Shown piece by piece: positions 9,840 through 57,476 of a stretch of DNA of 64,000 nt. The notes under the pieces were generated by a model that was not told the DNA's origin, ran no database searches, and saw nothing but the letters and a program-made list of their open reading frames with translations. Position numbers and translations under genes: made by a program. The DNA lies in the NCBI GenBank assembly GCA_009777715.1, contig WRLH01000017.1, positions 2,191 through 66,190 of the forward strand, given 5' to 3'. The stretch comes from Lachnospiraceae bacterium (GTDB taxonomy: Bacteria; Bacillota; Clostridia; Lachnospirales; Lachnospiraceae). The stretch's first letter is position 1, and every line of letters begins with the position of its first letter.

Positions 9840-10077
9840 GTACATGAGCAAAAAATTATCCGCGTCCTACCCTTTGAGACAAGAAATCATAAAATGCTCA
9901 ATTGAGTATGCAACAGAGTATATCATTCCAATAAGAATGCTAACATACCAGAGGTGTGTTAGCATTCTTGCCAGCGTTGCTGCCGAGCAACGCTTTTTTT
10001 ATGACCGAAAATTGGGCATTTTGCTTTTGATTTCGCAGTCACATGGTCAGGACGTGGGAATTTATTTGCTCATGTAC
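9840..10077. mobile_element. MITE-like nested palindrome, copy E1 (arms GTACATGAGCAAA...; variable central hairpins)
   Basis: The left arm GTACATGAGCAAAAAATT...CCCTTTGAGACAAGAAATCATAAAATGCTCAATTGAG and the right arm TTATGACCGAAAATTGGGCATTTT...TTTATTTGCTCATGTAC are imperfect inverted repeats. They are homologous to 55801-56041 and 57266-57476. Confidence 0.7.
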
Positions 10078-10098
10078 CCTGCTAACGAAATCTAGCGG

Positions 10099-10156
10099 GA
10101 TTGCGGAACAAATCCGCAATGACAGGCAAAGATTGCGGCGTGGGGGCCGCAATGAC
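10099..10156 (+). repeat. Two tandem REP-like hairpins (10099-10123, 10131-10156) 4 nt past the tyrS stop
   Basis: GATTGCGGAACAAATCCGCAATGAC and GATTGCGGCGTGGGGGCCGCAATGAC. Confidence 0.9.
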
Positions 10157-10159
10157 CCC

Positions 10160-11380
10160 TCACACCACAAACCTCCGGAAATGCTTCTTCCCCCTCTTTA
10201 CTAGCAAGCCCTCACCGCCAAAGCTGGCTTTAGTAAAAGCTTGCTTAAAATCCGTAACCTTTTCATTGTCAATTGAAACCCCGCCCTGCTCGACTGCCCG
10301 GCGGCCTTCGGAGCGGCTTAAAACCAGCTCGCCTTTGGTAAGAAGCGAAACAATATCAATGGCTTCATTTTCAAAATCATCATCAACAAGAACAGTCGTT
10401 GGAATTTCAGTACCGCCGCCCCCGGCAAACAAAGAAAGCGCCCCGGCCTTTGCTTTATCCGCTTCTTCTTTGCCGTGAACCATCTTTGTCACTTCAAAAG
10501 CCAAGATTTCTTTGGCTTCATTTAATCTGCTTCCCTCCCACTTGCTCATTTCCCCGATTTCGGCAAGGGGCAGGAAAGTCATCATTTTAAGGCATTTGAT
10601 GACCTCACTGTCAGCCACATTGCGCCAGTATTGGTAAAATTCAAACGGTGAAGTTTTTTCGGCGTCAATCCATAATGCCCCTTTGACGGTTTTGCCCATT
10701 TTGCTCCCATCTGCGTTAAGTAAAAGGGTATTCGTCAAGGCATAGGCTTTTTTGCCCAGCTTCCGGCGGATTAAATCAGCCCCTGCCAGCAAATTGCTCC
10801 ATTGGTCATCGCCGCCCAGCTGCATATTGCAGCCATATTTTTGGAAAAGCACATAATAATCATAGCTTTGCATAATCATATAGTTAAACTCAAGAAAGCT
10901 TAGGCCTTTTTCCATTCGCTGTTTATAGCATTCCGCCGTCAGCATCCGGTTGACGGAAAAATGGGCTCCCACTTCGCGTAACATATCTACATATTTTAAT
11001 TCGCGCAGCCAGTCAGCATTATTAACGAAGATCGCTTTGCCTTCGCCAAAATCAAGAAAATTTTCCATTTGCCGTTTAAAGCGTTCACCGTTTTCATCAA
11101 TCATGCTAGTCTCAAGCATTGAGCGCATATCTGTTTTTCCGCTTGGGTCGCCGACCATTCCTGTGCCGCCGCCGATTAGGACAATCGGGCGATTACCGGC
11201 CAGCTGCAAGCGTTTCATCATGCAAAAAGCCATGAAATGGCCGATATGGAGCGAGTTGGCAGTCGGGTCAAAGCCCATATAAAAAGTGGCTTTCCCGTTA
11301 TTAATCAGCTCCTTTATTTCCTCTTCATCGTTAAGCTGGGCAATCAAGCCCCGCGCTTTTAATTCTTCAAATAACTGCAT
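10160..11380 (-). CDS. tyrS: Tyrosine--tRNA ligase
   Basis: 406 aa. Has the class I HIGH motif (SLHIGHF), a KMGKT (KMSKS) motif and a C-terminal S4-like domain. AGGAGG lies 5 nt before the ATG. Confidence 0.95.
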   Translation of the reverse strand: MQLFEELKARGLIAQLNDEEEIKELINNGKATFYMGFDPTANSLHIGHFMAFCMMKRLQLAGNRPIVLIGGGTGMVGDPSGKTDMRSMLETSMIDENGERFKRQMENFLDFGEGKAIFVNNADWLRELKYVDMLREVGAHFSVNRMLTAECYKQRMEKGLSFLEFNYMIMQSYDYYVLFQKYGCNMQLGGDDQWSNLLAGADLIRRKLGKKAYALTNTLLLNADGSKMGKTVKGALWIDAEKTSPFEFYQYWRNVADSEVIKCLKMMTFLPLAEIGEMSKWEGSRLNEAKEILAFEVTKMVHGKEEADKAKAGALSLFAGGGGTEIPTTVLVDDDFENEAIDIVSLLTKGELVLSRSEGRRAVEQGGVSIDNEKVTDFKQAFTKASFGGEGLLVKRGKKHFRRFVV

Positions 11381-11444
11381 TTTTTCCTCCTAAAATAGTT
11401 TATGACAGCATTGCCTCAATTAAGCTTACCCATAACATATATAT

Positions 11445-11520
11445 CAAAAAACTTTAATTTCCACACTAAACTCAAAAAACTTTAGTTTTTTATAGAAAGT
11501 GGAAATTTAATTTCCACACT
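11445..11520. repeat. Terminator-like palindromic module (AAAAAACTTTAGTTTTTT + AGTGGAAATTTAATTTCCACACT), copy A, with a partial extra half
   Basis: The same module is seen at 45006-45068 and 55942-55990. It abuts the stop codon of the VWA gene. Confidence 0.8.
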
Positions 11521-11521
11521 A

Positions 11522-12724
11522 TCACTTTCTTAACATCAGCTCGTCCATGGCTTTTTTTAGGCCCGCAACGGTTAATTTGTACATCGGTAAGAGATTTTTA
11601 ACCGCCGTTTCCGCCTCGCGCCAAGGGGCATGGCCGGGTGCCATCTTTGGGTTAAGCCAGACAATCTTTCGGTAATTTTGCTTCAAAAGCTTTAGCCACA
11701 TGAATCCGGACAGGCCGCCGTTTGGCCCGCGGTAATTGCCGCTTTCGGAATAAAGCTCCTCCGGTGCCATCGCCGCGTCACCAACAATAATGACCTTGTA
11801 ATCACTTTCGAGGTTGCGAAACAGCCATTCTGTTTCGATCCAATCGCCGTTTTCGCATTCAGGAGTTTTATAAAGATGGGAATAAATGCAATTATGGAAA
11901 TAATAACACTTTACATCTTTATAATGATTCGCTTTATGGACCGATTGGAAAAGTTCATTTAAAAGTGATGTATAAGGTATCATTGTACCGCCTGAATCCA
12001 TTAAAAGCAAGAGCTTGACGGCATTTTTCCGCGGTTTTTCCATGACAATTTGCAAAAAGCCGCCATTAGTGCAGGTTTTATCGATTGTGCCGTTAATATC
12101 AAGCTCTGTTCTCGGAATGTCAAGCCGCGTTGAAAACTGCCGTAACTTCCTTAATGCCAATTGAAACTGCCGATTGTCAATAATCCGGTCGTCCCGGAAA
12201 TCCTTGTATTTGCGTTCACCCAAAACGGCAAAAGCAGATTGATGGCCAGACATTCCGCCAATGCGGATTCCGCCAAGGTTTGCCCCGGTGTTGCCAAATG
12301 AGGTCTTACCCATTGTGCCAATCCAGTAATTTCCGCCATTATGCTCGCTATCCTGCTCTTTTTTTCGCTCGTTTAACTTCGCTTCTATTTCATCTTTTGA
12401 CAAAGCTGGTTCTTCTTCCCGGTTTAACATACTGCGCAAATCTTCATTGACCAAGTCGGTCAATTCCTCTTTGTTAAGCCAGCGGAGCATTTCTTTGGAA
12501 ATGATGTCATTAGAATTAATGCCCTTAAAGCATTCATCAAAAGCAAGGTCAAACTTGTCATAGTCTGTTTCATTTTTGACAAGGACGGCGCGGGCAACAT
12601 AATAAAAGGCGGCCAGGCTGTTCTTGGCCAAATCCTTATTAAGCGCGTCTTGCAAGGTGAGCCATTCATTAAGGCTTATCTTTAAACCTTTGGCTTTTAA
12701 GGCATAAAAAAAATCAATGAACAT
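11522..12724 (-). CDS. VWA domain-containing protein (CoxE-like partner of a MoxR-class ATPase)
   Basis: 400 aa. The N-terminus MFIDFFYALKAKGLKISLNEWLTLQDAL and the C-terminal LLLMDSGGTM / IIVGDA pattern (VWA MIDAS-like) fit this family. It overlaps the upstream ATPase gene by 11 nt. Confidence 0.7.
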   Translation of the reverse strand: MFIDFFYALKAKGLKISLNEWLTLQDALNKDLAKNSLAAFYYVARAVLVKNETDYDKFDLAFDECFKGINSNDIISKEMLRWLNKEELTDLVNEDLRSMLNREEEPALSKDEIEAKLNERKKEQDSEHNGGNYWIGTMGKTSFGNTGANLGGIRIGGMSGHQSAFAVLGERKYKDFRDDRIIDNRQFQLALRKLRQFSTRLDIPRTELDINGTIDKTCTNGGFLQIVMEKPRKNAVKLLLLMDSGGTMIPYTSLLNELFQSVHKANHYKDVKCYYFHNCIYSHLYKTPECENGDWIETEWLFRNLESDYKVIIVGDAAMAPEELYSESGNYRGPNGGLSGFMWLKLLKQNYRKIVWLNPKMAPGHAPWREAETAVKNLLPMYKLTVAGLKKAMDELMLRK

Positions 12725-13532
12725 TCTTTATCACGTCCAAATCTTCATCTTTTTTGATGATTACGCCAATAAAAGGCAAGCTCTTTTTAAGTTGTTCCGC
12801 GCTTATTCCGCCAATTTGCAGGGCTTTTATCCAATCAATCAGTTCCGATGTGCTTGGCTTTTTACGCAGGTCACGAAGTGAGCGGATTTCATAAAAACGA
12901 TCCATTGCGCTTTTTAGCAGATTTTCCTCAACATCGGGATAATGGGTGCGGACGATTTTTTCCATCAAACCTGCATCAGGAAAATCAATATAATGGAAAA
13001 CCAAACGGCGCAGAAATGCGTCCGGCAATTCTTTTTCGGCATTTGAAGTAATAATTACAATCGGCCGTTGCTTTGCCTTGACCAAACTCTTTGTTTCATG
13101 GATATAAAATTCCATCTGGTCAAGCTCCCACAATAAATCATTGGGAAACTCAAGGTCGGCTTTGTCAATTTCATCAATCAAAAGGACAACCTGCTCTTCG
13201 GCTCTAAAGGCTTCGCCTAATTTACCCAAGGTAATATACCTCGCGATGTCGGAAACCCCTTCTTCGCCAAACTGGCCGTCATAAAGGCGGCGGATCGTAT
13301 CATAAGCATAAAGGCCTTCCTGGGCCTTAGTTGTTGATTTGATATTCCAAATAATCAGCTTTTTGTTAAGAGACTCGGCAACCGAAGCAGCAAGGCGCGT
13401 TTTCCCCGTGCCGGGTTCACCCTTAATTAACAAAGGTTTGCCCAGCGAAACCGCAACATTAACGGAAAGCTTTAGCTCCTCGGAAGCTACATAATCATCA
13501 GTGCCTGTAAAAATGCTCATGCTTATATCCAT
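12714..13532 (-). CDS. MoxR/CoxD-like AAA+ ATPase
   Basis: Walker A GEPGTGKT and Walker B LLIDEIDKA. The track ORF extends to 13619, but that N-terminus looks non-coding. ATG 13532 (MDISMSIF...) or ATG 13520 is more plausible, so the start is uncertain. Confidence 0.8.
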   Translation of the reverse strand: MDISMSIFTGTDDYVASEELKLSVNVAVSLGKPLLIKGEPGTGKTRLAASVAESLNKKLIIWNIKSTTKAQEGLYAYDTIRRLYDGQFGEEGVSDIARYITLGKLGEAFRAEEQVVLLIDEIDKADLEFPNDLLWELDQMEFYIHETKSLVKAKQRPIVIITSNAEKELPDAFLRRLVFHYIDFPDAGLMEKIVRTHYPDVEENLLKSAMDRFYEIRSLRDLRKKPSTSELIDWIKALQIGGISAEQLKKSLPFIGVIIKKDEDLDVIKNVH

Positions 13533-13634
13533 GTTCCTTTCTATAAAGTACGCTGTTATGTTAACCATCCACAAGAATCGTACACCAAAGCTGTGTTTCG
13601 TTTCTTGCCCCATCAGCAAAGCTTCCGTTTTTTC

Positions 13635-14204
13635 TCACACATCTAACTGCAACATTACTTCATTTTCGGCCTGCATTTTAAATTCTTCAATTTGGACCGG
13701 GTTCATCTGCGGCAAATCAGCCAAAGACTTAACCCCAAAGCAGCGCAAAAATTCCTCGGTCGTGCCAAATAACAGCGGACGGCCCGGCGCGTCTAGGCGG
13801 CCAAGTTCAGTTACTAAATCAAATTCAAGCAAGCGGTTAACGGCATGGTCACAGCTGACCCCGCGGATTTTTTCTATTTCGAGCCGCGTAATCGGCTGTT
13901 TGTAAGCAATAATTGAAAGTGTTTCCAAAACCGTTTCGCTCAAAACATATTTTCGCGGAGTTTTGGCTATTTTGATCAAATACTCATACATATCGCCGCG
14001 GGTACACATCTGGAAAGAATCTTCAAGCTCCAAAAGCGCCATGCCCCTAAAATCCTTTTCGTATTCGCTCTTCATTTCCAGAAGCATTTCATGCGTTGCC
14101 GCTTTTTCTTCTTCTATTACTGCCGCCAGCCTTTCGATTTCGACTGAATCACCCATCGTAAAAAGGATGGCTTCCAAGATGGCTTTTTTTTCTTTTCTTT
14201 CCAT
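13635..14204 (-). CDS. scpB: Segregation and condensation protein B
   Basis: 189 aa. ILEAILFTMGDSV..., and it lies immediately downstream of scpA. Confidence 0.9.
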   Translation of the reverse strand: MERKEKKAILEAILFTMGDSVEIERLAAVIEEEKAATHEMLLEMKSEYEKDFRGMALLELEDSFQMCTRGDMYEYLIKIAKTPRKYVLSETVLETLSIIAYKQPITRLEIEKIRGVSCDHAVNRLLEFDLVTELGRLDAPGRPLLFGTTEEFLRCFGVKSLADLPQMNPVQIEEFKMQAENEVMLQLDV

Positions 14205-14210
14205 GTTAAA

Positions 14211-15095
14211 CTATCTTTCCTCCAGCGTTTGCGTCTGCACTTGCGTCTGCACTTGCGTCTGCACTTGCGTCTGCACTTGCGTCTGCACTTGCTTTTTATC
14301 TTGCGCCAGCCCCTGCGTCTGCCCTTGCGCCAGCCCATGCGCTTGCTTTTTTGCTTTTGCCTGTTCAATAATTATGTCATCTTTAATATCATTTTGATAG
14401 ATAATGACCCGCCCCAGCTTCATTAACTCAAGCACGACAAGAAAGGTAACAATGATTTCCATTTTGCTTTGGCCTTGGGAAAGCAAGGCGGTAAAGCTAA
14501 AACGCTTGTGCTTTTCTAAATAAGCTTCAACAAACAGCATTTTTTGCTCAACGTTGATTTCGTCTTTTTCGACCTCGCTAAAAGTAGAACGGATGGGGTC
14601 AATTTTGTCAACTTGACGCTTTAGCATGGTTTTAAATATCTCATGAAGCTTTTGTAAATCCGCGTCCCCGAGCAAATCTTCATAATCAAACGGCTGGCGG
14701 TAATTCTTAACTTCATCGGGCAGTGACTGGGGTTTGAATAAATTGCGGCGGGCGTCAACTTGGCGGTCTTTTAACTCGGCGGACATATATTTGTACATTT
14801 TGTACTCAAGGAGCTTTTGGACTAGCTCGGCCCTGGGGTCTTCCTCTTCGCCATCTTCATTTTCGGCAGGGGGCAGGAGCATCCGGCATTTGATGTCAAG
14901 CAAGGTCGCGGCAATAACGAGAAATTCACTCATTAAATTCATGTCCTCGCTTTCAAGATGGCGGATATATTCCAAATATTGTTCGGTAATCAAAACGATG
15001 GGGATATCGTAGATATCGACTTTATTTTTTTCTATCAGGTGCAAAAGCAAGTCAAGAGGGCCTTCAAAAACCTGTAATTTCACTTGTAAGGGCAT
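14211..15095 (-). CDS. scpA: Segregation and condensation protein A (kleisin) with an unusual repetitive C-terminal tail
   Basis: 294 aa. The N-terminus LQVFEGPLDLLLHLIEKNKVDIYDIPI is typical of ScpA. The C-terminus carries (QVQT)n encoded by a 12-bp repeat. Confidence 0.9.
   Translation of the reverse strand: MPLQVKLQVFEGPLDLLLHLIEKNKVDIYDIPIVLITEQYLEYIRHLESEDMNLMSEFLVIAATLLDIKCRMLLPPAENEDGEEEDPRAELVQKLLEYKMYKYMSAELKDRQVDARRNLFKPQSLPDEVKNYRQPFDYEDLLGDADLQKLHEIFKTMLKRQVDKIDPIRSTFSEVEKDEINVEQKMLFVEAYLEKHKRFSFTALLSQGQSKMEIIVTFLVVLELMKLGRVIIYQNDIKDDIIIEQAKAKKQAHGLAQGQTQGLAQDKKQVQTQVQTQVQTQVQTQVQTQTLEER
14229..14292 (-). repeat. In-frame 12-bp tandem repeat x5 (TTGCGTCTGCAC) at the 3' end of scpA
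   Basis: I counted five perfect units at 14229-14288 plus a partial unit. It encodes QVQTQVQTQVQTQVQTQVQT. Confidence 0.9.
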
Positions 15096-15102
15096 ATTAT
15101 GT

Positions 15103-15209: not shown

Positions 15210-15210
15210 T

Positions 15211-19554: not shown

Positions 19555-20001
19555 GCGTGAGGATTCTTTGCACTTCAATGCAGACCCGCTTTCGCTCGAT
19601 GTAAAACGTTGCGTTACATAAGTTCGTCAAAAACACGAACTATGTAACGACGTTTTACAACGGTCTGCGTTTGAAGTCAAAAATCCTCTCGCGAATACAC
19701 TACGCCGCGAGGGCGAAAGTGCGGTTCATAAGGCCGGGCCTTGAGATATCGTCAAAACGATTCTCTCGGAGCGAAAGCGTCCCGGACGATGAAGCGACAG
19801 CTTTCGTCCACGCGGAAAGATTCGCATTTGCATTGAAGTACAAAGAATCCTTACGCGGAAAAAATCCGGACGATGAAGCGACAGCTTTCCTCCACGCGGA
19901 AAGATTCGCGTCTGCATTGAAGTGCAAAGAATCCTCACGCGGAAAAAATCCAGACGGTGAAGCGACAGCTTTCGCCTACGCGGAAAGATTCGCGCCTCCT
20001 T
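19555..20001. repeat. Mosaic repeat array downstream of alaS: 138-nt long hairpin (19555-19692), a collapsed H-module, then an 84-bp unit x2.6 (19782-20001)
   Basis: Hairpin arms are GCGTGAGGATTCTTTGCACTTCAATGCAGACC and GGTCTGCGTTTGAAGTCAAAAATCCTCTCGC, around TTGCGTTACATAAGTTCG...CGAACTATGTAACGA. Unit starts are at 19782, 19866 and 19950. Confidence 0.85.
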
Positions 20002-20005
20002 TTGG

Positions 20006-22691: not shown

Positions 22692-23404
22692 GCGTGAGGA
22701 TTCTTTGTCTCTGCGTTGTACGTTTACGGTTTCTCCGCGTGAGGATTCTTTGTCTCTGAGTTGTGCGTTTACGGTTTTCCGCGTGGGCGAAAGCTGTCGC
22801 TTCACCGTCCGGGACGCTTTCGCTCCGAGAGAATCATTGCGTTACATAAACTCACAAAATACGTGAGTTAAGTAACGATGATTCTCAAGGCCCGGCCTTA
22901 TGAACCGCACTTTCACCCTCACGGCTTAGCGCTATTCATATTTCAAGCCTCACGGCATAGGGTTGCGCTGTACGTTTGCCAATTCAACCTCACAGCGTGT
23001 GCTAGTCGTCTACCGTTTCAATCCTCACGGCATAGAGTTGCGCGAGAGGATTTTTGACTTCAAACGCAGACCGTTGTAAAACGTCGTTACTTAGTTCGTG
23101 CTTTTGACGAACTTATGTAACGCAACGTTTTACATCGAGCGAAAGCGCGTCTGCATTGAAGTGCAAAGAATCCTCCGTGTAGCATAAGCTTTCGCCCACG
23201 CGGATAGATCGCGCGTCTGCATTGAAGTGCAAAGAATCCTCCGCGTAGCATAAACTTTCGCCCACGCGGATAGATTGCGCGTCTGCATTGAAGTGCAAAG
23301 AATCCTCCGCGTAGCATAAGCTTTCGCCCAAGCGGTGAGATTGCGGGTACGCCCGCAATGACGTGTGGCCTGTGCGGATAGATTGCGGGTACGCCCGCAA
23401 TGAC
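22692..23404. repeat. Mosaic repeat array upstream of alaS: ~45-bp unit x2.3, H-module hairpin (22827-22886), four CCTCACGGC modules, 136-nt long hairpin (23042-23177), 66-bp unit x3 (23147-23344), two REP hairpins (23339-23362, 23381-23404)
   Basis: The modules are shared with 9511-9748 and 19555-20001. Unit starts are at 23147, 23213 and 23279. Confidence 0.85.
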
Positions 23405-28770: not shown

Positions 28771-28790
28771 AATCTCTCCTCCAAATTCCA

Positions 28791-28914
28791 GATTGCGGGT
28801 CAGGCCCGCAATGACAATACCTTGGCGTGATTGCGGGTCAGGCCTGCAATGACAATAAATTGCTTGCGTCACCAGGGCCTCCGAGCCGCGTCATTGCGGG
28901 CTTGACCCGCAATC
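28791..28914. repeat. Cluster of three REP-like hairpins (28791-28815 +, 28829-28853 +, 28890-28914 -)
   Basis: GATTGCGGGTCAGGCCCGCAATGAC, GATTGCGGGTCAGGCCTGCAATGAC and GTCATTGCGGGCTTGACCCGCAATC, plus a GGCCTCCGAGCCGC half-site. Confidence 0.9.
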
Positions 28915-35584: not shown

Positions 35585-35608
35585 GGTTATTCTCCTATGA
35601 AGTTTATA

Positions 35609-35721
35609 GATTGCGGGTCAAGCCCGCAATGACGTAAAATGGGGTCATTCCGCAATGACGTAAAAGGGGGTCATTCCGCAATGACGTAAAAGGGGGTCAT
35701 TGCGGCCTCCGAGCCGCAATC
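35609..35721. repeat. REP cluster: REP(+) 35609-35633, two collapsed copies GTCATTCCGCAATGAC (35644-35659, 35670-35685) within a 26-bp tandem unit, REP(-) 35696-35721
   Basis: Read directly from the sequence. The last REP overlaps the stop codon of the 674-aa gene. Confidence 0.9.
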
Positions 35722-37721
35722 TCCTCAATCTCCCATAAATAAGCGGCCGACACATACGCGGTCGGTATACTGCTAGTATAATTAATCGCTGCCCAGCCAT
35801 TGCTTATCCCGGTCACCCTGACGATGTCCCCGGCGCGTAAAGTGCCGACAACCCTGCCATTCATGCCCGGCGCGTTCCGGACAAACAAGCGCGAAGCCGG
35901 GCTTATGTTAACAGCATATGCCGTCACCTGACCAAGGCTTACTTCTGTTTCCAAAGGCCTGACAGGTCCGCTAAGATGGTTAAGGTACATGACTGCCAGC
36001 CATGTCCCGGTATGGGCAAGCACCCACTCGCCATCAGGGCTAAATTCGATTATCTCAACAACCGTCCCCCTTGCCAATCTGCCGACCAGCGGGAAATGAG
36101 TTCCCGGCCCGCTTCTTTCATTTAAAAAATTCGCATTGACAGTATATAAAGACTTGGCTGGCGTTGGTGGCTCTGGCTTTTTACTCACTTCCTGCGTAAC
36201 TATTATATTTGCCACGTTTGACCGATACCGCACCGCTCCGCCAATCAAACTGCCCGATCCGCGGAAACCGTTTGTCCAGCTCTCTATCACGCCGTGATTC
36301 CTGACCGTGCCGCCATTATAAAGTGTTACTCCGTTGGGGATGTTAAGGACCGAAGTCCCCGGTATATTAAGCGTATAACCCTCCGCAATGATCAAATTTT
36401 CACTTAGCGTCACATTGCCATAAACCGTTGCCTTATCATCTTCAAACAAGATTCCCCGTGAACCGGGGGCGGCAATTAATGGGGAAAATATATCAAATGA
36501 AGAAAGATCAGAAAGTACCGCTGATGACGCATATATCATCAGGTTGTCTTTTATGATCAGGCTTCCTGCTGTCACAATGCCGCCCGTTTGATCACTGCCT
36601 GCTCCGCCTGTGATCTGCCCCACCGGGCCGTTTCCGGAGAATGTAATAATGCTTGCAGCTCCACCACTTGTAACAATCCCTCTTTCGCCGCCGCTAATTG
36701 CCCCTGTCGTACCCGAAATAGTGATGTTCCGGCCGGTAATTCCGCTCGATTCGGTTCCGCTAACCGACCAGGCTTCGCAAAAATTGACAACACCCCCCCC
36801 CGCCAATGCCCAAATTCCATTGCCACCGCCGGAAATGTTTCCGATCGTGCCGCCAATTGTGACGTTCATGGCCAAAATGCCGTTAATTGTAGCGGAAATG
36901 CTTTCTACTTCCCCGCCAATGGTGATATTGCCGTTATTAGCCCAAATGCCATGGGCAGGAGGGCCTAAGTCGAAAATGGTAATGCCGCTTATCGCCCCGG
37001 TTGATCCTAAGATGGTGACATTACCAAGATAGGCTTCAATTGCACTCGCTATCCCCGAAATATTCCCCGTCCTGCCCTCAATGGTAACGCTTTGATTGGC
37101 TAAAATTCCGTTTCTATCCGTCCCGGTAATATTGCCAACGTCTCCGGAGATAATAATATTGCCGGCCGCCGACCTAATGCCAGTATTACCGCTAATAGCC
37201 AAAACCGTGCCGGAGATTATGATATCGTTAACCGCGTAAATACCGGTGCCGCCTGTTGCGCCTGTTGCTGAAATACTGCCGATGCTTCCATCGATTGTCA
37301 CATTCCCAAAAGCCTCAAGTCCGCTCATGGATAATTTTGACTCAATAACAATATCCTCACCTTGGCCGCGGATAATGGCGTCTTCATACAGGACTAGCGC
37401 AGGATAATTAACCTCGCTGGTAATCTTCGTGCCCGGGGAAAGGGTAATGTCTTTGGCGTGCGTAACTACGACCGGGCGGCCGCCACTATCGCCGGCAAGG
37501 AGAATTGCGTCCGGGGTAGCTATCATGATGATATTTCCCCCGGCACCAGAATCTCCGTGGATAAAAAAGCCTTCGCCAACATAACCGTCCGGCAAAGCCG
37601 CCAGTGCCGTCAGGTCAAACACAGTGGGCATGGGTGCCGGACTGGCGTATGCCGCTTTTGGGATTAGTAAGGCAAACGCTAGGGCTAGCAATGCCAATAA
37701 TGGGTAAAATCGTTTCTTCAT
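35697..37721 (-). CDS. Secreted beta-helix-repeat protein with two C-terminal SH3b domains (paralogue P1)
   Basis: 674 aa. Has a signal peptide (...AAYA/SPAP) and roughly 20-residue periodic G.I.I.G..G.I.G...GI repeats. A PEPPTPAK linker is followed by two SH3b-like modules (YTVNANFLNERSGPG...; VNISPASRLFVRNAPGMNG...). Confidence 0.7.
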   Translation of the reverse strand: MKKRFYPLLALLALAFALLIPKAAYASPAPMPTVFDLTALAALPDGYVGEGFFIHGDSGAGGNIIMIATPDAILLAGDSGGRPVVVTHAKDITLSPGTKITSEVNYPALVLYEDAIIRGQGEDIVIESKLSMSGLEAFGNVTIDGSIGSISATGATGGTGIYAVNDIIISGTVLAISGNTGIRSAAGNIIISGDVGNITGTDRNGILANQSVTIEGRTGNISGIASAIEAYLGNVTILGSTGAISGITIFDLGPPAHGIWANNGNITIGGEVESISATINGILAMNVTIGGTIGNISGGGNGIWALAGGGVVNFCEAWSVSGTESSGITGRNITISGTTGAISGGERGIVTSGGAASIITFSGNGPVGQITGGAGSDQTGGIVTAGSLIIKDNLMIYASSAVLSDLSSFDIFSPLIAAPGSRGILFEDDKATVYGNVTLSENLIIAEGYTLNIPGTSVLNIPNGVTLYNGGTVRNHGVIESWTNGFRGSGSLIGGAVRYRSNVANIIVTQEVSKKPEPPTPAKSLYTVNANFLNERSGPGTHFPLVGRLARGTVVEIIEFSPDGEWVLAHTGTWLAVMYLNHLSGPVRPLETEVSLGQVTAYAVNISPASRLFVRNAPGMNGRVVGTLRAGDIVRVTGISNGWAAINYTSSIPTAYVSAAYLWEIEEIAARRPQ

Positions 37722-37742
37722 AAAATCTCCTATGGGTTTATA

Positions 37743-37820
37743 GATTGCGGGTCAAGCCCGCAATGACGTAAAAGGGTCAAGCACGTAAAATAAGGTCATT
37801 GCGGCCTCCGAGCCGCAATC
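37743..37820. repeat. REP pair: REP(+) 37743-37767 and REP(-) 37795-37820, between P1 and P2
   Basis: Same arrangement and flanks (TCTCCTATG.GTTTATAGATTGCGGG) as the cluster at 35592-35721. Confidence 0.9.
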
Positions 37821-37827
37821 TTGAAAT

Positions 37828-45005: not shown

Positions 45006-45068
45006 CCAAAAAACTAAAGTTTTTAACACTTTAGTTTTTTAGAAAGTGGAAATTTTAATCTTCACACT
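45006..45068. repeat. Terminator-like palindromic module, copy B (AAAAAACTAAAGTTTTT...AGTGGAAATTTTAATCTTCACACT)
   Basis: Homologous to 11445-11520 and 55942-55990. Its end supplies the last codons and the TGA of the Rpn gene. Confidence 0.8.
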
Positions 45069-46048
45069 AGCACTTCCTGATATGCAAGGATTTTTTCAAC
45101 GCTTTCCTTAGTAATCTTCGCTATTTTTGCTATTTCCTCAACCGGATAGCCAGCTTCATACATATTCAAGATAATTTCGGCTTTGCCTTTTACTACGCCC
45201 TTTTCTATGCCCTTTTCTATACCCTCTTCTATGCCTTCCATAAAAACCATTTCGCCTAATCCTGACATCTTCTTTACCTCCTGGCTTAGTGACTTGCTAT
45301 ATTTAACGTGGTTTTCCAATACTTTATATGATTTCTTCGTCCGCGGATAAAACAAGGCGTTCATAATCCGGATTATTTCTTCGGTATTGTCATCGTCCGG
45401 ATCACCCAGCCTGATTATGACCATCGTCATTAAATCATTGTCACCCGGTTGAGTCTCTATGTCCTTGCTGTTCCAAGTGTTAACTAGCTCATATTGGGAA
45501 ATTGTGTTGCGTAAATCTTTCGGCACATTTTCCCGGCAGATAAAGATATTATAGACTTTCGCCAAAACGGTGTAGTCAGTCTTTGCTGTCGGGGCCGCTA
45601 TTTGTGAGCCAATCATCCTTGACATATAGTATATGCCGCGCTTTTCGATCGGATATCCCGGCCTATAGTTTCCCTGTGCCTCTACATCAACGTAAATATA
45701 ACAAGCAACTTCCTCATTAGAAAGTTTCGGGTTAATGACCTTAAAATATACATCGAACCGCGACATCATTTCATTTAGTGCTTTAAATTCAGGATTCAGC
45801 CCCTCAATCCGGTTTTGGTTAGTCCTGCCCGGCGCAACTTCTGTCACATTGCTGATTTTATCAGCTTCTATGCAATCGGCAATTTCCTGATATGACATAT
45901 CCTTAAATTCTTTGGCGGTATGCTTAAGCAATATGGCAAGGAACTCTTTATTCGATAAAATCTCTTTGCTCGTGTCATCTAACTGCGGAGCTTTGTCGGT
46001 TATCTGTAGTGAACTTGCTGCTGCTTCGCTCATTTCAATTTTGCCCAA
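45062..46048 (-). CDS. Rpn-family recombination-promoting nuclease / putative transposase (PD-(D/E)XK)
   Basis: 328 aa. Core ..FDVYFKV...YIYVDVEAQGNY.., and a C-terminal EGIEEGIEKGIEKG...ILNMYEAGYPVEEIAKIAKITKESVEKIL tail typical of this family. Confidence 0.65.
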   Translation of the reverse strand: MGKIEMSEAAASSLQITDKAPQLDDTSKEILSNKEFLAILLKHTAKEFKDMSYQEIADCIEADKISNVTEVAPGRTNQNRIEGLNPEFKALNEMMSRFDVYFKVINPKLSNEEVACYIYVDVEAQGNYRPGYPIEKRGIYYMSRMIGSQIAAPTAKTDYTVLAKVYNIFICRENVPKDLRNTISQYELVNTWNSKDIETQPGDNDLMTMVIIRLGDPDDDNTEEIIRIMNALFYPRTKKSYKVLENHVKYSKSLSQEVKKMSGLGEMVFMEGIEEGIEKGIEKGVVKGKAEIILNMYEAGYPVEEIAKIAKITKESVEKILAYQEVLV

Positions 46049-50005: not shown

Positions 50006-50014
50006 GTTTTATAC

Positions 50015-52746: not shown

Positions 52747-52761
52747 AAGCTAAGGCAAACC

Positions 52762-52790
52762 TTGACATGATTAAGCTGGCACAATATAAT
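52762..52790 (+). promoter_or_regulatory. Consensus sigma-A promoter for the DAHP synthase gene
   Basis: TTGACA (52762-52767), a 17-nt spacer and TATAAT (52785-52790), located 63 nt upstream of ATG 52854. Confidence 0.75.
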
Positions 52791-52853
52791 ATTGATGGTT
52801 ATTTTCTGCCCCCAGGCATTAATTAAGATTGGAAAGATTGGAGACAAAGAACC

Positions 52854-53882
52854 ATGTCATTTGATTTTATAAAAAAACTCCCCACCCCCGACATTATCCG
52901 GGTCGAATACCCCATTCCGGTTGAGCTTACCCGCATAAAAGAAGCGCGTGATGAAGAAATAAAAAAAGTAATTACTGGCGAGAGCAAAAAGTTTCTCGTT
53001 ATTATCGGCCCATGTTCCGCCGATAACGAAGAACCAGTCTGCGAGTATATCCGCCGCCTTGCTTCGATAAATGACAAAGTAAAAGACAAATTAATCCTTA
53101 TCCCCCGGATTTATACCAACAAGCCCCGGACAACAGGCGAGGGCTACAAAGGAATCAGCCACCAGCCCGACCCCGAAAAAAAGCCGGACTTCCTTGCCGG
53201 GCTGATTGCCATGCGGGAAATGCACATTCGCGCCATCAGGGAAACCGGGCTGACGGCCGCTGATGAAATGCTTTATCCGGAAAACTGGCGTTATGTCTCG
53301 GATATCCTTTCATATGTGGCAATCGGGGCGCGTTCGGTTGAAGACCAGCAGCACCGCTTGACGGTCAGCGGTTTTGACGTCCCCGCCGGAATGAAAAACC
53401 CCACCAGCGGCGACTTTACTGTCATGCTCAATTCGGTCCATGCCGCCCAGCAGAGCCATTCCTTTGTTTATCGCGGCTGGGAAGTTAACACGACCGGAAA
53501 TCCTTTGGCACATACTGTCCTGCGCGGAGCGGTCAACAACCTTGGCCAAAGCATTCCCAACTACCATTATGAAGATTTGCACTTGCTTCTTAGTTTATAC
53601 AATGAAAGAAATTTGGCAAACCCGGCTTGCATTATCGACTCAAACCACAATAATTCCAACAAGCAATACAAAGAGCAAATCCGGATTGTCAAGGAAGTTA
53701 TGCACAGCCGCAAGCTTAGCCCTGATATCCATCAATTAATCAAAGGGGTAATGGTTGAAAGCTATCTTGAAGAAGGGGCCCAGAAAATAGGCGAGGGGAC
53801 TTACGGCCGCTCAATCACCGACCCATGCTTAGGCTGGGCTGATACGGAAAGATTGATTTATGATATTGCGGATTACGAATAA
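52854..53882 (+). CDS. 3-deoxy-7-phosphoheptulonate (DAHP) synthase, class I
   Basis: 342 aa. IIGPCSADNEE, TNKPRTT and the overall pattern fit AroF/G/H-type enzymes. GGAGA lies 9 nt upstream. Confidence 0.9.
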   Translation: MSFDFIKKLPTPDIIRVEYPIPVELTRIKEARDEEIKKVITGESKKFLVIIGPCSADNEEPVCEYIRRLASINDKVKDKLILIPRIYTNKPRTTGEGYKGISHQPDPEKKPDFLAGLIAMREMHIRAIRETGLTAADEMLYPENWRYVSDILSYVAIGARSVEDQQHRLTVSGFDVPAGMKNPTSGDFTVMLNSVHAAQQSHSFVYRGWEVNTTGNPLAHTVLRGAVNNLGQSIPNYHYEDLHLLLSLYNERNLANPACIIDSNHNNSNKQYKEQIRIVKEVMHSRKLSPDIHQLIKGVMVESYLEEGAQKIGEGTYGRSITDPCLGWADTERLIYDIADYE

Positions 53883-54003
53883 ATCTTGCGGGCTAGAATA
53901 AGCTTGTTTTTTAGTTTTGATTGTAAAGATGTGGCAGAAAAGCCACGGCGTGTATCATTAATTTATCCATGCTCGTTGCAAAGTCTGGATACTTTCAATC
54001 TTT

Positions 54004-54900
54004 TCAGCGTCTTGGATGGGCCTTGGCATACATATCACGCATCCGGTTATGTTGCATATTGGCGTAAATCTGCGTTGTTGAGATATCAGAATGGCCAAGC
54101 ATTTCCTGCACAATCTGTAAATCCGCCCCATTTTCGATTAAATGCGCGGCAAAAGAATGCCTTAGCGTATGGGGAGTGATATCCGCGCTGATTCCGGCTT
54201 TTTTGGCATAAAATTTGATCAGCTTCCAAAATCCTTGCCTGCTCATGGGCTGGCCTTGGCAATTAACAAATAAAATTTCGTTTTCGGGATTTTCAATCAT
54301 CTGCTCTCTGCCGCCGCTTAAGTATTTGAGAATCGCTGTCCTTGCCGCGCTGCCAAAAGGGATAATCCGCTCTTTTCCGGTGCTTTTGCTTCCGTAAGAG
54401 CAAATAATATAACCCATCTGTAAATTTAGGTCTGTCATTTTAAGTGAAACCAGCTCCGTCACCCTGATACCTGTCGCATAAAGCAGTTCCAGCATTGCTT
54501 TATCGCGAAGCTCTTTAGGCGTCGCCCCGGCCGGCTGCTCTAATAAACGGATTACCTCTGATGTCGATAAAACATCGGGAGCTTTCCTTTCAATCCGGGG
54601 GGCTTTTAAAACATCTGAAACGTCAACCGCAATCATTCCCTCTTTCATCATATAATAATAAAAAGCTTTGATGGAAGATATGTTCCGGGAAATTGTGGCG
54701 GCGGAAAACTTATTTTTTTCAAGGAATAAAATATATGAATTAAGATTGGTCACGGTAATATCGGAAACATTGGCAATTCCTTGCTGTCTCATATAAAGAT
54801 TCACTTTATTAAGGTCACGGCGATAAGACATTGCTGTATTATCAGAAGTTTTCTTAGTATTATGTAAATAAGAAATGAATGAGTTGATTACTTGTTCCAT
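54004..54900 (-). CDS. xerD: Site-specific tyrosine recombinase XerD/XerC
   Basis: Contains the R...HxxR...Y catalytic set (ATGIRVTEL; HTLRHSFAAHL; LGHSDISTTQIYA). ATG 54900 (MEQVINSFISYL) is preferred over the longer track ORF. Confidence 0.85.
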   Translation of the reverse strand: MEQVINSFISYLHNTKKTSDNTAMSYRRDLNKVNLYMRQQGIANVSDITVTNLNSYILFLEKNKFSAATISRNISSIKAFYYYMMKEGMIAVDVSDVLKAPRIERKAPDVLSTSEVIRLLEQPAGATPKELRDKAMLELLYATGIRVTELVSLKMTDLNLQMGYIICSYGSKSTGKERIIPFGSAARTAILKYLSGGREQMIENPENEILFVNCQGQPMSRQGFWKLIKFYAKKAGISADITPHTLRHSFAAHLIENGADLQIVQEMLGHSDISTTQIYANMQHNRMRDMYAKAHPRR

Positions 54901-55064
54901 ATCTTTAAAAATCTCCCTGGTTTCCGGCTGGTAAGTTTTATTATAATCGCAATCGGCAAGAAATGCAAACACTAATTTCCTTTATTTTAAGCTATTTTCA
55001 GTCATTTTTTTCCAGATACAATATCTCGTAATTTTTATAAAAAATTACACAAGATATAGGCTGG

Positions 55065-55664
55065 CTAAAATATTTTTAATAATTCGGTCAGGATGATTGG
55101 GTTTACATAACTTTCCAAAATACTGCCAATTATGACAACTCCAAAAATCCATAATAAAATAGCCCCTTTCCTTAACAGGTAATGCTTTTGGGTTGGGGCC
55201 TTTTCCGTAACCCGGTTGGGGAAGTAAAATCTCATGCACAGCTGGCAGCCCCAGTTTAGAAGCATTATCCATGCCGGGACCAGCAAAAGCTGCTGGGGGA
55301 ATACTCCGGCAAAAAAAAGCAGGATTCCTTTAAAGCCATAGCGGATTACCGCGGCCGTCAGGAACATTCCGGTTAAGACTCCCTGCCAGGCAACAAACAG
55401 GTATGACGCGATAATGCCGATAAAGGTGGTGGAAAAAATAATTAAGATAAAGGCGGTTTTTAGTCTTTCAAAAAGGGTGTAGCGCAGCAGCATTGTGCCG
55501 TCAACATTAAGGTATTTGATCCGGCTTAGGGTGCTGGAGTTTAGGATTCCGCCATCACTTAGGAAATAGGTTTTGGCGATATTCATAATTAAAATGCCAG
55601 CAATGAAGCTGCCAGCAAATGTTAAAAGCCATTTAAGATAACGTTCGGTTTCTCTTCTTGCCAT
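55065..55664 (-). CDS. spoIIM: Stage II sporulation protein M
   Basis: 199 aa with five predicted TM helices and a C-terminal ILESYVNPIIL. Its position next to xerD is typical of SpoIIM. Confidence 0.6.
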   Translation of the reverse strand: MARRETERYLKWLLTFAGSFIAGILIMNIAKTYFLSDGGILNSSTLSRIKYLNVDGTMLLRYTLFERLKTAFILIIFSTTFIGIIASYLFVAWQGVLTGMFLTAAVIRYGFKGILLFFAGVFPQQLLLVPAWIMLLNWGCQLCMRFYFPNRVTEKAPTQKHYLLRKGAILLWIFGVVIIGSILESYVNPIILTELLKIF

Positions 55665-55742
55665 CGCATTCTCCTAGCTGTAACATTATATGCTGGCTTG
55701 TTCAAGTAATTCTCTTTTTTGCCCGGCTCGCTTTTGGCCTGC

Positions 55743-55768
55743 GTCATTGCGGCCTCCGAGCTGCAATC
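55743..55768 (-). repeat. REP-like hairpin (GTCATTGCGGCCTCCGAGCTGCAATC)
   Basis: Family member with one stem mismatch. Confidence 0.85.
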
Positions 55769-55800
55769 TGGGCCCGACCCGCTTTCATTATTTTAGTACA

Positions 55801-56041
55801 GTACATGAGTAAATAAATTTCTACGCCTGCCCGGGAGACTTCGAAATCAAAGGACTAAAATGCCCAATTTTCGGCCATAATTTGCTCCTCAATTGAGCAT
55901 TTTACACCTCTTGCATTTCACAAGCGTAGCTTGTGAAACTGCAAAAAACTAAAGTTTTTTATAAAAAGTGGAAATTTTAATTTCCACACTATGATTTTCT
56001 TGTCTCAAAGGGCAGGGCATAGAAATTTTTTGCTCATGTAC
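55801..56041. mobile_element. MITE-like nested palindrome, copy E2, interrupted by an ~85-bp insertion (55905-55989) that carries the AGTGGAAAT module
   Basis: The arms match 57266-57476. In E3 the right arm reads GCATTTTATGATTTC without interruption. In E2 the same site reads GCATTTTA[CACCTC...CCACAC]TATGATTTT. Confidence 0.75.
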
Positions 56042-56135
56042 TTTACAATCTAGCCAAGCCTAGCGGGTCAGGCGATTACTAAACACTTTACCTTGCGATA
56101 GAGAGTGCGATAAAATGTTTAAATCGCACTCTCTG

Positions 56136-56162
56136 ACTAATATGATTGTTGATAGGGATATA
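56136..56162. repeat. Left 27-bp inverted repeat of the XRE cassette
   Basis: ACTAATATGATTGTTGATAGGGATATA. It matches the reverse complement of 57083-57109 at 25 of 27 positions. Confidence 0.85.
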
Positions 56163-56254
56163 TTTTCTATCCTGTGGCAATAGGAGTGTTTTGGCAAACA
56201 GGGAGTGTATGACAAATAGGACGCTTGCCACAGCTACAACGCAAAAAATACTTA

Positions 56255-56935
56255 TTAGGCACGATGTTCCTCGCATAATAACGCAAATATATGCTTCACA
56301 TCCTCAGTTGAGTTAAGTCCGAGAGTTATGAAATGGCATTGTTTATAGTCTACGCCCTCAAATGTGTATATCATAGTGTAAGGACATTTATTGCATTGAC
56401 AGCTTTTGCAATCATTGCACCTGAAATTCGCCTTTATGTATTCCGGCATATCGTTGATAACATGCATATAATTTGAGCAGTTCTGCAAAGCGAGCCTTAC
56501 AACGATGTTGTCGTTTTCAATATCCATTCTGATGATAAAATCATCCTTATCTGGATTGTTGAATATTGAGCTGCAGCTGTTAAAAACTGCGTCAAATACA
56601 TTGTATTCGTTTTTGTAGCTTATCGTGAAGCTAAACCTATCTTTCATCTTTTGGTAAAGCAGCAACGCAAACTCACTGCTCTTACCGTCTACGGCATCCG
56701 CGAAGTCCTGAAAAGCTGTGTCTTGTGCGGCGAATGGCAAAAGCATCGAGTCTATCGAGCAATTCAATATCTGTGCCAACAACGGGAGCAGAGCCGTTTC
56801 AGGCAAAGTATGTCCATTTTCCCATTTGCTTATTGCCTGTGCGGTTATTCCGACTTTTTCAGCCAATTCCTCTTGTGTGAGTTTGCTTTGCTTACGCAAA
56901 GCGGCAATTTTATTGCCTACTGCCACGTTATCCAT
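56255..56935 (-). CDS. XRE-family HTH regulator fused to a Cys-rich C-terminal domain
   Basis: ATG 56935 lies 9 nt after GGAGG. The HTH is IAALRKQSKLTQEELAEKVGITAQAISKWENG. The C-terminus FRCNDCKSCQCNKCPYTMIYTFEGVDYKQCHF suggests a metal-binding module of unknown family. Confidence 0.7.
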   Translation of the reverse strand: MDNVAVGNKIAALRKQSKLTQEELAEKVGITAQAISKWENGHTLPETALLPLLAQILNCSIDSMLLPFAAQDTAFQDFADAVDGKSSEFALLLYQKMKDRFSFTISYKNEYNVFDAVFNSCSSIFNNPDKDDFIIRMDIENDNIVVRLALQNCSNYMHVINDMPEYIKANFRCNDCKSCQCNKCPYTMIYTFEGVDYKQCHFITLGLNSTEDVKHIFALLCEEHRA

Positions 56936-57031
56936 ACATAAAACCTCCAACTATAATAATTTTATAATAAATTAATTATAGCTCCTATAAACTCATTTTT
57001 CCATGTAATACAGGTTGTTTTTTCGGAAACA

Positions 57032-57052
57032 AACTTAACTTGAAGTTAAGTT
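57032..57052. promoter_or_regulatory. Perfect 21-bp palindrome AACTTAACTT-G-AAGTTAAGTT upstream of the XRE gene (candidate operator)
   Basis: Read directly from the sequence. It lies about 97-117 nt upstream of the XRE start, inside the inverted-repeat-bounded cassette. Confidence 0.4.
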
Positions 57053-57082
57053 CTGAAAATATAAATTTTATACGTACATCCT

Positions 57083-57109
57083 TATATCCCTATCAGCAAC
57101 CATATTAGT
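57083..57109. repeat. Right 27-bp inverted repeat of the XRE cassette
   Basis: TATATCCCTATCAGCAACCATATTAGT. Confidence 0.85.
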
Positions 57110-57124
57110 TTTGGTCTGCGTTAT

Positions 57125-57149
57125 GTCATTGCGGACTTGCTCCGCAATC
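57125..57149 (-). repeat. REP-like hairpin (GTCATTGCGGACTTGCTCCGCAATC), left end of the composite palindrome
   Basis: Family member. Its partner in opposite orientation is at 57667-57692. Confidence 0.9.
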
Positions 57150-57265
57150 TCACTATTCTGTTTACGTGTCACACGCACTCACCCGCACTCCGCGCGTGAT
57201 TTGCACTCCGCGCGTTTGAGAGCTGCCGATTCATCGCCCGACCCGCAATCTCATTATTTTGTAAA

Positions 57266-57476
57266 GTACATGAGCAAATAAATTTCTACGCCTGCCCGGG
57301 AGACTTCGAAATCAAAGACTAAAATGCCCAATTCTCGGTCATAAAAATAAATCGCGGCAAATTCCTATTTTATATACAGGAATCTTGCTCGCGATTTTTT
57401 TTATTTGGTCCTCAATTGAGCATTTTATGATTTCTTGTCTCAAAGGGCAGGGCGTAGAAAATTTTTGCTCATGTAC
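57266..57476. mobile_element. MITE-like nested palindrome, copy E3 (uninterrupted)
   Basis: GTACATGAGCAAATAAATTTCTACGCCTGCCCGGGAGACTTCGAAATCAAAGACTAAAATGCCCAATTCTCGG...central AAATCGCGG..CGCGATTTTTTTT hairpin...CCTCAATTGAGCATTTTATGATTTCTTGTCTCAAAGGGCAGGGCGTAGAAAATTTTTGCTCATGTAC. Confidence 0.75.

Follow-up and report, generated by a model that had tools for sequence, protein, structure and literature searches.

How can a palindromic repeat carry a different hairpin at its centre in each of its copies? The question is raised by a 64,000-bp stretch of Lachnospiraceae bacterium DNA (hereafter the window), which covers positions 2,191–66,190 of contig WRLH01000017.1 (C17; a window position equals the C17 position minus 2190) in the assembly GCA_009777715.1 (G000), a draft genome of 3.1 Mb in 64 contigs with 42.9% G+C and 96% completeness. 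A SpoIIM-family gene places the organism among the Firmicutes. The initial annotation of the window described three full copies (E1, E2, and E3) and a core fragment of a palindrome resembling a MITE (miniature inverted-repeat transposable element), and supposed that conserved arms surround an exchangeable central hairpin. All four sequences had been located exactly. With the repeat family denoted F1 and its modules named as described below, they are:

57266–57476, plus strand: E3, a canonical F1 copy of 211 bp with 87–92% full-length identity to 12 genomic copies; its modules, delimited by module BLAST, are A (57266–57316), B (57321–57349), C (hairpin and T8; 57350–57402), B′ (57403–57426), and A′ (57428–57476)
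55801–56041, plus strand: E2, an F1 copy without the centre C and with another repeat, F2, in its right arm (alignment with E3 and other variants)
9840–10077, minus strand: E1, an inverted F1 copy with a two-hairpin module in place of C and of the first 8 nt of B′
63393–63493, plus strand: partial F1 copy consisting of module B and a loop-expanded C, without outer arms (BLAST)

We regard it as probable that these sequences belong to a lineage-restricted family of non-coding repeats of about 210 bp, that the state seen in E3 is canonical, and that the differing centres go back to secondary events followed by mosaic spread. The size of the family, its modules, intergenic location, lineage restriction, recent homogeneity, mosaicism with reticulate relationships, and few recurring structural variants are established, and the E3-type state is probably the original one. 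From such a state, E2 would have arisen by precise loss of the 57-bp palindrome C and by insertion of the unrelated repeat F2 at a TA dinucleotide in the right arm, E1 by substitution of C with a two-hairpin module, and the 63.4-kb fragment by expansion of the loop of C. The variant states would then have spread among copies, either by homologous recombination or gene conversion between dispersed copies or by repeated site-specific insertion of F2, or would have arisen repeatedly, yielding mosaic elements.

The F1 Family and Its Modules

A BLAST comparison of the elements and of single modules with the whole G000 genome identified about 25 F1 loci on 20 contigs, with E-values down to 1e-85, which indicates that the family is not a product of chance. 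Relatives were represented by 40 genomes, comprising 8 congeners (among them G004, the closest genome) and 32 more distant genomes. Neither of the circumstances that the initial annotation had named as fatal to its view was found: the genome holds many more copies than the window does, and the distant relatives hold none. The F1 consensus of about 210 bp consists of five modules:

Module A: 54 nt, begins GTACATGAGCAAATAAATTTCCAC
Module B: 29 nt, AAAATGCCCAATTTTCGGTCATAAAAATA
Module C: 53 nt, AATCGCGGCAAATTCCT-loop-AGGAATCTTGCTCGCGATTTTTTTT
Module B′: 25 nt
Module A′: 49 nt, terminates TTTGCTCATGTAC

These modules form an imperfect palindrome of three layers, in which outer arms (A/A′) and inner arms (B/B′) enclose the central hairpin C, which is preceded by an A-rich run and followed by T8. 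The motifs of the outer arms (GTACATGAGCAAA...) and of the inner arms (AAAATGCCCAATT/AATTG.GCATTTT) are as first described. At the termini, GTACATGAGCAAA pairs with TTTGCTCATGTAC at 13 of 13 positions, and imperfect pairing continues to about 50 nt. Coding of a peptide was considered and rejected because the longest open reading frame (ORF) that can be read from the consensus has only 10 codons.

Thirteen canonical full-length copies, E3 included, have the E3 centre and 84–92% identity to E3 (87–92% in all but one, which carries a 17-bp insert). The E3-type centre is also present in two degenerate copies, located on contigs C2 and C56, and is thus found at about 15 of the 25 loci. The claim that the centre differs in each copy is therefore correct for the three copies of the window and incorrect for the family.

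Folding and Conservation of F1

As proposed in the initial annotation, the element can be folded into one long hairpin. E3 forms a single hairpin at a predicted −95 kcal/mol, compared with −40.6 ± 3.9 kcal/mol for dinucleotide-preserving shuffles (z = −13.8; 0 of 200 shuffles as good). An alignment of 11 canonical copies, on which the analysis of conservation and covariation is based, has a mean column identity of 92%, and its consensus fold is predicted to contain 76 pairs, with 96.8% of the cells paired. The centre helix is the least variable part of the element, being invariant in 24 of 25 pairs, and the variation lies in the outer arms, which is the reverse of conserved arms around an exchangeable centre. 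Double-sided changes were detected in six pairs, all of which belong to the arms and four to helix 2 of the outer arm, whereas shuffles give 3.0 ± 1.0 (4 of 500 shuffles reach six); for example, TTTCTACG/CGTAGAAA in E2 and E3 corresponds to TTTCCACG/CGTGGAAA in other copies.

A simple terminator scan misses C, whose loop is 11–12 nt long, and C was therefore folded directly. The hairpin is predicted to form at −23.2 kcal/mol and is followed by U8; on the reverse strand, the corresponding hairpin is predicted at −27 kcal/mol and is followed by UUUAUUUUUAU. At the level of prediction only, F1 thus has the stable stem and U-rich tract that are characteristic of the SPRITE type of repeat (see section Comparison with Known Repeats). 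If transcribed, C would act as an intrinsic terminator in both directions, and the long stem would protect 3′ ends.

A fold of this strength could also belong to RNA. F1 copies may be genes or leaders of structured non-coding RNAs, for instance small RNAs ending at the central terminator, with the palindrome kept for RNA function, as is suggested by some compensatory changes in the arms, by the terminator at the apex, and by the retention of copies at three loci orthologous to those of a sister species. We consider this improbable. No Rfam covariance model matched at the gathering score in the 64-kb window, the symmetric element has no evident polarity from promoter to terminator, and promoter-like matches inside F1 are weak (9 of 12 positions, at the right end). 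In addition, both orientations are equally frequent relative to neighbouring genes, insertions of 85 bp and loss of the centre are tolerated, and compensation in a repeat that is a perfect palindrome can also arise at the DNA level.

Variant States of F1

The deletion of C in E2 is precise, with the junction CATAA/TTTGCTC at 55880/55881, and the identical junction is present at C43:17703–17838, so that the C-loss state is represented by two copies. E2 and E3 have 95% identity in their arms. The hairpin TTTCACAAGC-GTA-GCTTGTGAAA, which was initially taken for the centre of E2, belongs to an insert located between the right inner and outer arms:

55905–55989 (85 bp), minus strand: F2 insert inside E2, between B′ and A′, with TA at 55903–55904 and 55990–55991

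F2 is found at the same TA in the right arm of five genomic copies (E2, C44, C54, C43a, and C14b) and of a metagenomic locus, L094. The replacement module of E1 is about 90 bp long (about 9909–9999), and one of its two hairpins is a textbook stem followed by T7. This type of centre is 98% identical at C32:31698–31934 and 91% identical in L094, and is thus represented by two genomic copies and L094. The loop expansion of the 63.4-kb fragment (ACCGAACTAAAGTTCG) is the same in C43:9932–10340 (C43a), which also makes two copies. A 17-bp palindrome is inserted in arm A of two copies (C21b and C18b), which have two different arm haplotypes. The C40 mini-copy of 64 bp consists of only the two F1 ends, and some copies are truncated by a third repeat, F3.

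A limited repertoire of centres, which the initial annotation suggested looking for, is thus observed: there are five or six states, each of which recurs. The three centres of the window are different kinds of secondary event at different positions (E2 and E1) and the canonical state (E3).

Together with flanks of about 10–30 nt on the left and 70 nt on the right (55792–56111 and 57257–57546), E2 and E3 are direct repeats with 95–97% identity that bracket a 1.2-kb segment containing an XRE-family gene (56255–56950). The private arm haplotype that is common to both (CTACG/CGTAG) indicates that they are local duplicates.

The Nested Repeat F2

F2 is an independent repeat of about 75–90 bp, with about 40 loci in G000, to which it is confined. 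Examples outside the window are located at C14:4297–4476, C15:50616–50704, and C1:30455–30517. The window contains two copies outside F1:

11468–11531, plus strand: partial solo copy of F2
45025–45069: partial solo copy of F2

The minus-strand reading of the insert in E2 consists of a hairpin with a T-run, a second hairpin, and a Shine–Dalgarno-like GAGGTG. Genome-wide, the order on this other strand is hairpin with T-run, second hairpin, Shine–Dalgarno-like GGGGGT or GAGGTG, and TA. In 19 of 34 hits to the motif, the start of a long ORF is located 1–35 nt (mostly 10–15 nt) past the second hairpin, shortly after the TA, and a native ribosome-binding site is often located just upstream of the insert. 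The downstream genes are mutually unrelated; judging from their N-termini, we take them to encode, among others, a DNA polymerase I-like protein, a response regulator, and a MerR-type regulator. In G004, the orthologue of one F2 target has GGAGTTCATA/AAATG without F2. From its sequence context, F2 appears to be a small repeat whose point of insertion lies between a gene's ribosome-binding site and its start codon and which carries a ribosome-binding site of its own.

The site in the F1 arm, TA/AAATGC, resembles the F2 target. A joint reading of the two families can be formulated, in which F1 and F2 are modular, recombining intergenic cassettes, F1 by gene conversion and F2 by homing to TA. Dispersed and even orthologous F1 copies would be kept alike and would swap inner modules by templated gene conversion, and F2 would be a portable unit of terminator, hairpin, and Shine–Dalgarno sequence that homes to TA between the ribosome-binding site and ATG, entering F1 because the TA/AAATGC of the inner arm mimics its target. 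We hold this joint reading to be doubtful; if it were true, a genome-wide set of terminators would evolve in concert, and F2 would supply new ribosome-binding sites.

Mosaicism among F1 Copies

The nearest left arms of F2-bearing copies are those of F2-free copies (E2–E3, 0.95; C44–C14a, 0.96; C54–C14a, 0.92). Conversely, E1 and C32, whose centres are nearly identical, have arms that are only about 90% identical, and in L094 the E1 centre occurs together with the long F2 variant and the arm haplotype of C18a. Both the long and the short variants of F2 occur at the TA site of F1. Each of the five genomic copies with F2 has an extra T immediately after the insert (TGATTTTC), and this speaks for a common origin of the insertion. 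As judged from the aligned copies, the variant states do not follow the arm haplotypes. Either segments pass between F1 copies through recombination or gene conversion, or F2 enters its site repeatedly; probably both happen.

Variation of the centre among the copies of the window, free combination of states with arm haplotypes, and better conservation of the E1-type centre than of the arms around it are also in keeping with the mechanism initially suggested, that is, a fixed arm scaffold in which dedicated cassette exchange or site-specific recombination swaps the central hairpin. This mechanism is, in our view, very improbable, given that one centre is common to most copies and that the events are unlike in kind and in site: a deletion (CATAA/TTTGC), the entry of F2 at the TA that lies between B′ and A′, the substitution of C together with 8 nt of B′, and a palindrome inserted in arm A. 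Neither a motif common to the variant junctions of F1 nor a recombination site was seen, and a dedicated cassette recombinase is therefore not suggested. Furthermore, F2 is an independent family with other copies outside F1. What stands of the initial suggestion is the exchange of segments or the repetition of events at the same site, as modules are found on unrelated arm haplotypes; the dedicated cassette mechanism does not stand.

L094 is located at positions 3129–3669 of contig Ga0099364_10081913 of a Joint Genome Institute (JGI) metagenome. Its repeats are 91–99% identical to G000 copies, whereas the adjoining gene, which encodes 836 aa, has only 71–74% identity to its best G000 match. This gene may be a paralogue; if it is not, the lineages have conserved, or exchanged, their repeats to a far greater degree than their genes.

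Genes around F1 and a Possible Terminator Role

All F1 loci are intergenic, and none lies inside an ORF. According to crude ORF calls, on which the orientation of neighbouring genes rests, most copies are located between co-directional genes at a distance of 50–550 bp, and 3 of 25 are located between convergent genes. The enrichment near 3′ ends or between convergent genes that characterises SPRITE was not found for F1 at these loci.

A terminator role is plausible, on the strength of predicted folds and gene positions, for E3, for the 63.4-kb fragment, which begins 7 nt past the stop codon of ORF 63111–63386 and is convergent with ORF 63540–63995, and for the old C2 and C56 copies, each of which is located tightly between convergent genes. 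Two observations speak against such a role. The orientation of F1 relative to the upstream gene is forward in six cases and reverse in six, and the T-run of E1 points away from the incoming transcript; for E1, a terminator role is not evident.

REP Hairpins, Linkers, and F3

F1 is usually part of a larger array, as was determined from the flanks of 23 loci. A hairpin resembling a repetitive extragenic palindrome (REP), ATTGCGG-N7–8-CCGCAAT, is present 20–34 nt to the left of F1 at 17 of the 23 loci, and a second such hairpin is present about 22 nt to the right at 15 of them (exactly 22 nt in 11 of these), nearly always with the AGCAAGT loop. The start of F3 (GAGAGTGCGATTCATAAG...) is located 24–118 nt (mostly 59–91 nt) to the right of F1 at 18 of the 23 loci, so the usual order is REP hairpin–linker–F1–linker–REP hairpin–F3. 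The semi-conserved linkers of 20–30 nt form imperfect inverted repeats with one another and are found nowhere except beside F1, and the F1 palindrome extends through them into the REPs. REP hairpins are found in the window as follows:

9778–9798: REP hairpin (ATTGCGG-N7-CCGCAAT) beside E1, with its partner at 10100–10120
55746–55767: REP hairpin left of E2, at a distance of 34 nt
57128–57148: REP hairpin left of E3, 118 nt away, with another module between
28784–28862, 35602–35722, 37736–37821, and 57668–57689: further REP hairpins

In its strict form (GTCATTGCGG-N6–9-CCGCAAT), the REP-like hairpin is present in 202 copies in G000 and in 33, 5, and 1 copies in three congeners (G004 has the single copy), with none in the other 37 relatives that were searched. 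Its loop is of at least two subtypes, CCTCCGAG and ACTTGCT/AGCAAGT. The REPs are short GC-rich palindromes of high copy number that form inverted pairs with conserved linkers, which F1 itself is not.

F3 is a long-hairpin repeat (GAGAGTGTCGATTCACCGCCCGACCC...GGGTCGGCCTTATGAATCGCACTCTC) with about 45 starts in G000 that often abuts stop codons. It is multi-copy in G004 as well (at least 12 loci), unlike F1, F2, and the REP hairpin. F3 truncates or sits inside F1 arms at C18:15658, C41:16123, C21:62039, and C43:9932–10340. It occurs in the window at these positions:

9494–9770, 19559–19990, 22776–23350, and 57516–57740: F3
57516–57568: start of F3 (GAGAGTGCGATTCATAAGACCGACCCTTGAGA) on the right flank of E3, with a mirror copy by E1 at 9716–9768 (inverted repeat, 96% complementary)

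The regularity of these arrays permits another explanation, namely that F1 is the inner part of a composite bounded by REPs, similar to BIMEs or REPINs, and that the composite is copied by a REP-processing enzyme or by REP-to-REP recombination. The near-fixed distances of the REPs on both sides, the restriction of the linker motifs to the neighbourhood of F1, the uniform loop subtype of the right REP, the continuation of the palindrome into the REPs, and the size of the REP family, which has members in two congeners in more than single copy (33 and 5), all favour this explanation. It must be set against the lack of a Y1/RAYT gene in the assembly and the occurrence of REP, part of the linker, and F3 together without F1 (C5:122860 and C11:23772). 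The oldest copies (C2 and C56) and the G004 copy are also without REPs, and G004 has F1-like copies but a single REP. On balance, we regard a REP-bounded composite as a credible but unlikely explanation.

Possible Mobility of F1

If F1 is taken as a repeat in its own right, it may have multiplied at the DNA level within the array described above, by means of an enzyme that is absent from or not recognised in the draft assembly or by means of recombination. F1 shares with MITEs a length below about 500 bp, the lack of coding capacity, many dispersed copies, and terminal inverted repeats. Several results have to be set against this reading, to which the old loci described in the next section must be added. 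In the flanks of 21 copies lined up at the element ends, no target-site duplication was found, whether as a direct repeat shared by the copies or as one private to each copy. The flanks are semi-conserved for 20–30 nt beyond the terminal GTAC, and hence the true ends of the copied unit are not set by GTAC and no target-site duplication is readable. No clean empty site was found in the relatives, which are 65–84% identical and too diverged for exact breakpoints, and no REP–linker–linker–REP arrangement without F1 was found within G000. The gap at 55.6–57.7 kb (about 2 kb), which holds E2 and E3, is about 180 bp long in the congeners G006 and G003, which are too diverged for breakpoints, and other congeners have unrelated genes in its place. 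RAYT/Y1 (PF01797) had no match in G000, which is 96% complete, whereas control genomes did match, and IS630 and IS4/5 transposases are absent from the G000 assembly.

A full-length insertion sequence (IS) with the termini of F1, for which a search had been proposed together with that for a target-site duplication, was not found in the 64 contigs of the G000 draft: all paired F1 termini are less than 420 bp apart, none are more than 500 bp apart, and no gene is enclosed. Unpaired termini are the result of truncation by F3 or of contig ends. Two rve-domain genes and an IS256 fragment were rejected as partners of F1 because no F1 terminus is located on their contigs. A small PDDEXK_3 nuclease (PF13366 hits are only weak and partial, inside frames of 403–541 aa) and a small GIY-YIG nuclease (a single hit, in a 634-aa frame) were likewise rejected, with no F1 termini at either.

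The term MITE-like is apt for a nested palindrome that is non-coding, intergenic, and present in many copies and that has terminal inverted repeats and a terminator-like hairpin. Of the further features of a classical MITE, neither a target-site duplication nor an autonomous parent IS with the same termini was found, and no clean empty site was seen in relatives too diverged for exact breakpoints. As it fails the tests of target-site duplication and parent IS, and the RAYT test in addition, F1 is MITE- or BIME-like by behaviour and is a member of neither class.

Distribution and Age of F1

F1 is present in one of the eight congeners (G004, which has a few old copies) and in none of the 32 more distant relatives. 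The terminal pattern has one match in 185,579 representative genomes, in Oceanirhabdus, which is a number expected by chance. A metagenome scan with the pattern shortened by three bases returned 109 matches, mostly due to chance, among which L094 is the only real copy; viral contigs have only chance matches to the terminal pattern and none to the centre C. Another assembly of the same strain (L129) is 99.94% identical and has no indel. Within the sequences covered by these searches, F1 is confined to this species and to a few old copies in one sister species.

In G004, flanking genes are about 76–84% identical to those of G000. The C2 locus (C2:8150–8326) is collinear on both sides with G004 C45:15254–15433 (L002), where a full F1-like element is present in the opposite orientation; this is consistent with inversion in place between the arms of the element or with loss and subsequent re-insertion. 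The G004 counterparts of the C56 and C54 loci, recognised by synteny on one side, contain only a C-like terminator (AAATAAATCGCGGCAAATT...). The coincidence of these three G000 loci with a G004 element or centre-like terminator is evidence for old rather than mobile copies, and, as far as synteny can tell, part of the F1 family is old and vertically inherited. Another G004 locus (L004) contains a decayed F1 with recognisable inner arms and has no F1 counterpart in G000, and two other G000 loci have no counterpart beside the orthologous gene in G004. Taken together, shared and unshared loci indicate that F1 is older than the split of the two species and that loci have been gained or lost since. 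The copies in G000 are more alike than expected from independent vertical descent, which suggests concerted evolution or re-insertion.

These old loci lend some weight to the idea that F1 is immobile and consists of old, related native terminators that are kept similar by gene conversion, with arms and arrays having grown by local duplication. The G000 elements at C2, C56, and C54 resemble their G004 counterparts no more than they resemble other G000 copies (the C54 copy is 93% identical to E3 over its first 162 nt), and E2 and E3 with their flanks are local duplicates around the 1.2-kb gene cassette. Immobility would nevertheless have to account for two checked loci without F1 beside the orthologous G004 gene, for the absence of the arms of about 25 copies from seven other congeners, and for the opposite orientation of the elements at the orthologous C2 locus, and we think it rather unlikely. 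Multiplication within this lineage, with secondary changes of the centre and mosaic spread, is the reading that we retain.

Comparison with Known Repeats

Imperfect palindromes of 100–200 bp with terminal inverted repeats include the ERIC (or IRU) sequences and the Correia elements of Neisseria, some of which are enlarged by insertions at fixed sites, and effects of such elements on transcripts, namely termination, cleavage, and promoters, are on record. In NIMEs, conserved short inverted repeats flank blocks that vary. A TA duplication and a defined IHF site are found in Correia elements, and ERIC belongs to enterobacteria; such features are not shown for F1, in which a TA flank is present only around the nested F2.

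The small modular and nested repeats of pneumococcus, BOX, RUP, and SPRITE, can be "inserted into one another" and clustered, and, like F1, they belong to a Firmicute, are shorter than 250 bp and non-coding, and form hairpins (Croucher et al., 2011; PMC3049150). BOX (boxA-boxB(n)-boxC) has conserved terminal modules and a variable number of internal ones (PMC3049150). SPRITE is built like a Rho-independent terminator and is enriched at convergent gene ends (PMC3049150), whereas F1 has its terminator at the apex of a single long three-layer palindrome and is mostly located between co-directional genes, in either orientation. For SPRITE, neither a target-site duplication nor an empty site could be established (PMC3049150). 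RUP has a known IS partner, whereas none was found for F1. No sequence relationship between F1 and these repeats is expected.

Classical MITEs such as Nezha and Chunjie are, like F1, small, non-coding, and present in many dispersed intergenic copies with terminal inverted repeats (Delihas, 2011; PMC3184786); in contrast to them, F1 is without a target-site duplication, a demonstrated empty site, or an autonomous IS with matching ends. Enterobacterial BIMEs and Pseudomonas REPINs are intergenic mosaics of short GC-rich palindromes of two subtypes, in inverted pairs with conserved linkers (Bertels and Rainey, 2011; PMC3116915). The REP hairpins described here are similar to them in having hundreds of copies and a restricted lineage. 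They differ in that the "linker" between REPs is a 210-bp palindrome carrying a terminator, in that no RAYT was found, and in their Firmicute host.

The observation made in the initial annotation is thus confirmed, and its interpretation finds partial support. F1 is a new family of a kind that is already known (compare BOX, SPRITE, ERIC, BIME, and NIME). Nesting, deletion, and recombination, which are known processes in repeats of this sort, account for the seemingly exchangeable centre, and no new mechanism is revealed.

Significance

Most of the oversized intergenic regions of the G000 genome consist of layers of REP hairpins, F1, F2, and F3, and these repeats need to be masked or annotated, lest they be taken for regulatory RNAs. 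F1 provides, in a Firmicute, a case of a palindromic repeat that carries a terminator and has visible mosaicism among its copies, and it is useful for studying recombination between dispersed short repeats and the possible co-option of such repeats as terminators.

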